From the IMG/VR virus record IMGVR_UViG_2563366979_000002, positions 1-15,032 of that record: a DNA stretch of 15,032 nt; one strand, written 5' to 3'. A program made the position numbers and the translations under genes. Of the stretch, positions 4,652-4,728 are shown one piece after another. The stretch is from a virus. Its lineage: Duplodnaviria; Heunggongvirae; Uroviricota; Caudoviricetes. Under the pieces are notes generated by a model, which searched no databases, was not told the DNA's origin, and worked only from the letters and a program-made list of their open reading frames with translations. Positions within the stretch are counted from its first letter, which is position 1. The number at the start of each line of letters is the position of its first letter.

Positions 4652-4728
4652 ATCAGCCCACTCGCTGAGATCGTCTGGTTCGGCTGCGGCTTAAGGTTGA
4701 AGAAGAAAGTGCGGGAACCGGTCGTCGT

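Follow-up and report, generated by a model that had tools for sequence, protein, structure and literature searches.

The window analysed here (the whole stretch of DNA, 15,032 nucleotides) is the ybhC/ybhB locus, lambda attB, of E. coli KTE54 and is 100% identical to scaffold KB733040.1. Its features are as follows.

1..1284, minus strand: ybhC, host flank left of lambda attB, collinear at 98.9% identity with ybhC of GN06156 (L006 6559-7842)
1331..1345, plus strand: attL core GCTTTTTTATACTAA, the lambda att core, an exact 15-mer with two copies in the window
1419..2489, minus strand: lambda-type integrase, 356 aa, intact ORF (Pfam Arm-DNA-bind_1 and Phage_integrase)
2467..2684, minus strand: xis pseudogene, frameshifted by a 1-nt deletion between 2585 and 2586
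2724..4277, minus strand: early-left ('ea'-type) accessory region including a PerC-family ORF at 3462-3776 (from ORFs, Pfam and GC)
4274..4692, minus strand: 5'-truncated EaA-type gene, C-terminal two-thirds of DUF550 and complete DUF551; annotated ORF 4274-4651, 125 aa
4691..4693, no strand: proposed deletion junction; TT at 4691-4692 common to both parents, breakpoint 4692/4693 from a three-way alignment
4693..5970, plus strand: 5'-truncated DNA-circulation gene (Mu gp43/N, SfV orf15 family), 413 aa from GTG 4729 as against 442 aa
5967..10980, plus strand: intact baseplate/tail-fibre module; Mu gp44/P and gp45-gp48 homologues, glycine-rich fibre, fibre assembly protein
11374..14107, minus strand: gtrC (485 aa, 29% GC), gtrB (305 aa) and gtrA (120 aa), all ORFs open, O-antigen glucosylation cargo
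14451..14465, plus strand: attR core GCTTTTTTATACTAA, the second copy of the lambda att core 15-mer
14556..15032, minus strand: ybhB, host flank right of lambda attB, collinear with ybhB of GN06156 (L006 48639-49115)

Layout of the locus

The directly repeated att cores lie at a known attachment site, as expected for a prophage of the 042p1/SfV-like kind, and enclose an element of 13,120 bp flanked by ybhC (product 427 aa, matching Pfam Pectinesterase) and ybhB. The same pair of cores also delimits intact prophages in L005, L006 (GN06156) and L010 (042). Examination of ORFs and Pfam matches found no immunity, replication, lysis, head, sheath, tube or tape-measure module in the 13.1 kb element. 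Because the modules of a viable phage are absent, the element was classed as a defective remnant and not as a phage. It is a defective derivative of an 042p1/SfV-like serotype-converting lambdoid prophage and a case of ordinary prophage decay.

The int-xis-att region has ~96% DNA identity to lambda int-xis-attP. In the alignment of xis, the genes of GN06156 and A3 read CCTCCTCCGG and the window reads CCTCCT-CGG. Owing to the resulting frameshift, the 72 codons of the gene are divided between ORFs 2541..2684 and 2467..2616, and the KTE54 record contains no xis call. The missing nucleotide could be a true pseudogenisation, one that locks the remnant where it is, or an error in the draft sequence. 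In the accessory region, the PerC-family ORF on the minus strand (PF06069, 8.5e-15) is part of an AT-rich segment of 35-38% GC. Window positions 3272-4258 had no match of at least 85% identity in 5426 complete E. coli genomes and this stretch of ~1 kb has the look of a rare, moron-like insertion into the early-left region.

To the right, the seven baseplate/fibre ORFs (359, 182, 141, 352, 194, 310 and 134 aa) have the same lengths as in the intact relatives described below. The module is syntenic with SfV orf16-22 and shows Pfam matches to Phage_Mu_Gp45, GP46, Baseplate_J and Phage_Mu_Gp48. With the circulation gene included, the synteny extends over SfV orf15-22, and DNA identity is 94% with the Sf phages and 97.6-99.5% with the E. 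coli prophages. Window positions 4681-11224 are 99.5% identical in DNA to SCU-482. An inverted fragment of a second tail-fibre assembly gene was observed downstream of the fibre assembly gene (11090-11236, both strands); it is also found in the relatives (cf. L006 45098-45226 in GN06156). The fragment seems to be what remains of an invertible fibre segment, with no invertase gene present.

The gtr cargo is located directly inside attR, the same position as in SfV, 042p1, SCU-482 and GN06156, and gives Pfam matches to Glycos_transf_2 and GtrA_DPMS_TM. The ORF at 11374-12831 (minus strand) has no Pfam match; its size and position fit gtrC.

Two divergent genes without their 5' ends

A preliminary description of the window had drawn attention to two divergent genes around 4690, both apparently missing their 5' ends. 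Its reading of the frames was correct. On the minus strand, the frame ending at the stop 4274-4276 remains open past its first ATG (4651-4649) to a stop at 4691-4693. On the plus strand, a TGA at 4666-4668 is in frame with the circulation gene and the first available start is the GTG at 4729.

The left gene had been described simply as a DUF551 gene. Its 5' truncation stands, and the gene can now be recognised as a two-domain EaA-type gene (DUF550 plus DUF551) with much of DUF550 gone. The remnant matches only positions 33-96 of the 97 in the profile PF04447 (DUF550, dATP/dGTP pyrophosphohydrolase), compared with 1-96 for the full-length protein of E. coli A3, and this partial match is followed by a complete PF04448 (DUF551). 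The A3 homologue, with PF04447 and PF04448, has 213 aa, and that of phage Kapi1 is 98% identical to it from end to end; EaA of P22 is a member of the family. Compared with this P22 EaA/DUF550-DUF551 family, the KTE54 gene lacks 77 of 213 codons at the N-terminus (230-232 nt) and keeps residues 79-213. The closest EaA genes are located in P22-like or lambda-like prophages, for example A3 and Kapi1. The 125-aa ORF is ELG07600.1 (A1SG_02034), the only member of its own 90% cluster.

In the right gene, the motif HEYPNRDKPYTEDLG (HEYPNRDKP) begins at codon 4 counting from GTG 4729, the first ATG, GTG or TTG in the frame. The preliminary description had put this motif some five codons in, instead of the usual 30 or so residues; its nearness to the start is correct, and its histidine is residue 33 in the 442-aa homologues. 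The ORF matches PF07157 (DNA_circ_N; 1.8e-26) from profile position 11 of 88 as against position 2 in a 442-aa homologue, and the gene is thus without a full N-terminal DNA_circ_N domain. At the DNA level residues 1-17 are gone and 18-442 are kept. Only MTWKDRLQDASFRGVP(F) has been lost, that is 49-51 nt or 16-17 of the 442 codons typical of this Mu gp43 (N) circulation family, rising to 29 aa if translation begins at GTG 4729. Full-length circulation proteins have 442 aa in SCU-482 and GN06156, and SfV orf15, whose record annotates similarity to Mu protein N, has 447 aa. The 413-aa ORF is ELG07601.1/WP_001587933.1.

The alignment to full-length homologues proposed in the preliminary description gave a sharp limit on each side. 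Similarity of the EaA remnant to all of its homologues ends at 4692, and that of the circulation protein starts at K18, from which residue it is 98-99% identical to the proteins of SCU-482, GN06156 and SfV orf15.

It could be supposed that both ORFs are complete, with true starts, and that a small functional element, for instance a satellite or a gtr island, has a natural module boundary at this joint. The KTE54 record does annotate both as ordinary proteins, and E. coli E308 and a metagenome contig each contain a 125-aa ORF with an identical start. We regard this as very improbable since both Pfam domains are cut at the N-terminus and the sampled homologues, among which any starting at the same positions as these ORFs were to be sought, all extend upstream. 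Moreover, the other 125-aa copies are themselves truncations in which EaA is fused to the 3' end of cro, and the one in E308 carries a PGAP flag for a missing N-terminus. Finally, the element is without any replication, packaging or regulatory module. ELG07600.1 (125 aa) and ELG07601.1/WP_001587933.1 (413 aa) are best annotated as pseudogene fragments and not as true short proteins.

The junction at base level

The window was aligned with a left parent (the EaA-type gene of A3/MEI008) and a right parent (the DNA-circularization gene of SCU-482). As far as ...GGCTGCGGCTT (4692) the window tracks the left parent, and from (TT)AAGGTTGAAG (4691/4693 on) it tracks the right one. Each base could be assigned to one parent and there is no filler at the junction. 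The two sequences that meet at 4692/4693, the EaA-type gene on the left (minus strand) and the DNA-circulation gene on the right (plus strand), are unrelated. Breakpoint, parents and gene content can all be read directly from the DNA. Both genes are indeed cut at one shared point as previously claimed, although the alignment to both parents places it at 4692/4693 and not at about 4690. The minus-strand TAA stop (the reverse complement of TTA, 4691-4693) arises from the junction itself. An ORF of 182 aa runs across the junction (4307-4855, plus strand); lying antisense to EaA and in a different frame from the circulation gene, it was treated as spurious.

The parents were also inspected for microhomology, as had been suggested. 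The exact microhomology at the joint is 2 nt (TT), situated within an imperfect 6/8 match. Two or more shared nucleotides are expected in ~15% of random joints and the TT by itself is not significant. The 6/8 match covers the 8 nt 5' of the joint, TGCGGCTT in one parent against TGCCGTTT in the other, and would have P ~0.004 at a random joint, a value to be read with the match having been spotted post hoc. No repeats were found at or flanking the joint and no att-like sequence was found at it. Pfam and annotation revealed no transposase or IS in the window, including at the joint.

Junction-spanning queries were run by megablast against the 5426 complete E. coli genomes. Matches to the left half all stop at window position 4692, and matches to the right half start at 4681-4691. 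None of the 5426 genomes joins both halves, though thousands match each half, and coverage of the queries never exceeded 51% in any genome. As thousands of homologues of each gene run past the breakpoint and none joins the two, the junction is not a chance pattern. An exact 24-mer across the junction had no match in either the GTDB species representatives or the JGI metagenome contigs; the junction was present only in contigs derived from KTE54 data, namely the scaffold and the Logan assembly of SRR640074.

One might suspect an assembly artefact, with two prophage regions joined into a chimera in the KTE54 scaffold. KTE54 is a draft from the short-read era, and prophage repeats are classic sites of mis-assembly. 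However, the independent Logan assembly of SRR640074 contains a 39 kb contig that is 100% identical over window positions 1274-7651, across the joint. In addition, flanks and chromosome are collinear, the att cores pair as they should and there is no collapsible repeat at the joint. An artefact is therefore hardly credible.

Intact relatives and the extent of the loss

Three complete E. coli genomes, SCU-482, GN06156 and 042, hold an intact prophage at the identical site and in the identical orientation. The distance from att core to att core is 39.7 kb in SCU-482, 40.6 kb in GN06156 and 40.8 kb in 042. These prophages share with the KTE54 element the ybhC/ybhB site, the 15-bp att core, int/xis (98.7-98.9% identity to the window), the SfV-type baseplate/fibre module and the region from there to attR (97.6-99.5%), and gtrA and gtrB by attR (99%). 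They differ from it in the EaA allele, the PerC segment and the gtrC allele and, above all, in being ~40 kb long with complete early, lysis, head and tail modules as against 13.1 kb.

The missing part was delimited by comparison with GN06156. Window positions 1-2732 and 4681-11234 are collinear with L006 6559-9291 and 38826-45380, between which lie 29.5 kb. The early part of this interval holds early-left genes, cI/cro, replication, Q and lysis, and the late part holds terminase, portal, protease, capsid, connectors, sheath, tube and tape measure, with a small moron directly upstream of the circulation gene. SCU-482 and 042 show the same early-to-tail block missing from KTE54. Between equivalent points the block measures about 27-29 kb in the three genomes, and the intact lengths exceed that of the remnant by ~27-28 kb, the estimated loss in KTE54. 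The preliminary description had held that the early, head and proximal tail region of a phage was lost at this point, and this is supported by the intact same-site relatives, which hold precisely these modules between the equivalent positions.

The slot between the tape-measure and circulation genes holds different small cargo in the three relatives (SCU-482 L001 5548-5934, GN06156 L006 38057-38734 and 042 L010 37784-38170), either an opposite-strand OB-fold protein or a 225-aa hypothetical protein. This moron site is directly upstream of the right breakpoint in KTE54.

At the site equivalent to the KTE54 EaA remnant, the prophage of 042 has DUF551 genes within an ea-type early-left region. 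This prophage has been published as 042p1 (ROD15), 40,811 bp long with a 15-bp direct repeat and gtrAB as cargo, half of it lambda/P22-like and half SfV-like (PMC2808357). Since 042p1 has an ea-type left arm and an SfV-type right half, a single prophage with this set of modules does exist. No intact prophage with exactly this EaA-bearing left arm together with the right arm was found among the INPHARED phages, nor an intact ancestor with both arms among the best matches to the left arm in complete E. coli genomes. The rare gtrC allele, used as a marker of the ancestor, led only to prophages at other att sites, for example argW in G4/9.

Origin of the junction

The above results are best explained, and with good confidence, if 4692/4693 is the scar of one internal deletion of ~27 kb in an 042p1-like mosaic prophage at the lambda attB of KTE54. 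The history of a single event in one prophage is argued from the architecture of the 042p1-type relatives and not from that of a direct ancestor. Such an ancestor would have combined a lambda int/xis/att module, a lambda/P22-type early half, an SfV/Mu-type head-tail half and gtrABC by attR. Its early-left operon would have run leftward to int and its late operon rightward to attR. One end of the deletion would have fallen in EaA in the early-left operon and the other in the late DNA-circulation gene, and a deletion between opposed operons would leave two divergent genes, each without its 5' end. The rest of the early-left operon, the N/cI/cro immunity region, replication, nin/Q and lysis would have been taken out, and with them terminase, head, sheath, tube and tape measure. 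Because the leftward early-left and rightward late operons diverge, one deletion could account for the whole window.

The deletion might instead have spanned two prophages, a P22/lambda-like one with EaA and an SfV-like one with gtr, either in tandem at lambda attB or recombined earlier. The loss would then have amounted to ~65 kb and have taken in an internal att site and a second int-xis. Both types of prophage use this int/att module at the same site (P22-like in A3; SfV-like in SCU-482, GN06156 and 042), the nearest full-length EaA genes belong to P22-like phages and no intact element with both arms was found. Nevertheless, 042p1 unites an ea-type DUF551 left arm and an SfV-type right half in one 40.8 kb prophage at this very site, and the early-left regions of lambdoid phages are freely mosaic. 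The remnant also holds exactly one attL, one attR and one int. A second prophage needs an extra integration before the deletion, which nothing in the window requires, and this less parsimonious history is considered unlikely, though clearly less so than a natural boundary or an assembly artefact.

Under the preferred reading of one deletion in one prophage, the loss most likely occurred through one illegitimate-recombination event. The joint is without an IS, a long repeat, a site-specific recombination site or filler DNA, as would be expected of an illegitimate deletion. As there is no IS, repeat, filler or att-like site at the joint and the att cores are intact, we infer illegitimate recombination. 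The mechanism could have been microhomology-assisted end joining or replication slippage, perhaps steered by the short imperfect homology. Three other routes were considered and rejected. An IS-mediated deletion is at odds with the lack of any transposase or IS end in the window, though the relatives carry IS5 and ISEc31 elsewhere. Homologous recombination between repeats finds no repeats by the joint, the parents being linked by nothing beyond the 6/8 match. Aberrant excision by Int/Xis does not agree with both att cores and both host flanks being intact.

Consequences for the remnant

The deletion would have removed pL, pR and pR', leaving the truncated genes and the intact baseplate genes without a known promoter. 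A promoter scan gave 6 consensus-level matches where 2.5±1.7 were expected, none convincingly placed for either truncated gene. The baseplate and fibre genes would now be without their late promoter and their expression would be lost. The KTE54 element would likewise be unable to form virions and, given the xis frameshift, it is probably locked in place and unable to excise. The 6.5 kb of tail genes are undecayed; since all seven baseplate/fibre ORFs keep their full length and share 99.5% identity with SCU-482, the deletion would be recent. Reading frames also stay open in int and gtrABC. The remnant probably persists owing to its O-antigen-modifying gtr cargo.

Comparison with other gtr prophages

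The Shigella flexneri phages SfV, SfII, SfIV and SfI show ~94% DNA identity from the circulation gene to the fibres, and also carry gtrB and gtrA. Their gene order is the same as in KTE54, running from orf15 (Mu N-like) through baseplate, fibre and gtrC-gtrB-gtrA to attP. Unlike the KTE54 element they are complete phages with their own integrase and att by gtrA and not the lambda int/att module, and their early-left region is yfdP-T-like with no EaA gene.

CPS-53 (KpLE1) of E. coli K-12 is a defective gtr prophage at argW, related to SfV, which lost its structural region by internal deletion. Like the KTE54 element, remnants of the CPS-53 type keep int, early-left genes, tail-fibre fragments and gtr, but they differ in their argW/intS att site, their breakpoints and the genes kept. 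The argW remnant in G4/9 has the same gtrC allele as KTE54 (97.7%) and a truncated early gene adjoining a truncated fibre gene. There, at L011 40951-41505, a truncated helix-turn-helix gene of the replication region adjoins a truncated stfP, and gtrB is frameshifted. The KTE54 element would offer a base-resolved example of a serotype-converting prophage turning into a fixed gtr island, in parallel to CPS-53 in K-12; beyond annotation its significance is small.

A second truncation of EaA

The exact 125-aa ORF is also present on a gut-type ENA metagenome contig of 946 nt (L013, from ERZ926427), which shares the otherwise rare left arm of KTE54 (window 3831-4652, 99.9%). Upstream of the ATG, positions 1-130 of this contig contain the last 35 nt of cro followed by nutR boxB and tR1, in the opposite orientation. 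The same cro'::'EaA joint occurs in the complete genome of E. coli E308 (L014 ~20000-20130), in a different defective gtr prophage located at sbcB. This joint is a second, independent deletion which again leaves a divergent pair of genes, each without its 5' end. On the EaA side it ends at about window position 4652, 40 nt from the KTE54 breakpoint. That the 5' third of EaA is a recurrent deletion endpoint in gtr-carrying defective prophages is a doubtful proposition. If the proximity of the endpoints were no coincidence, it could reflect a local hot spot for breakage or recombination or, alternatively, selection to destroy the dATP/dGTP pyrophosphohydrolase domain while sparing DUF551 and the downstream accessory genes.

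The gtrC allele

The gtrC allele of KTE54 is unlike those of 042, SCU-482 and GN06156 at the same locus, and matches to it of 98% in DNA were found in only 14 complete genomes. In the 3 genomes in which it could be placed it lies away from ybhB. In G4/9 it is at argW, and in T-HYM1 and EcPF15 its coordinates differ from those of the gtrA-ybhB copy. This suggests that the serotype-specific gtrC cassette has been exchanged between prophages with different integration modules.
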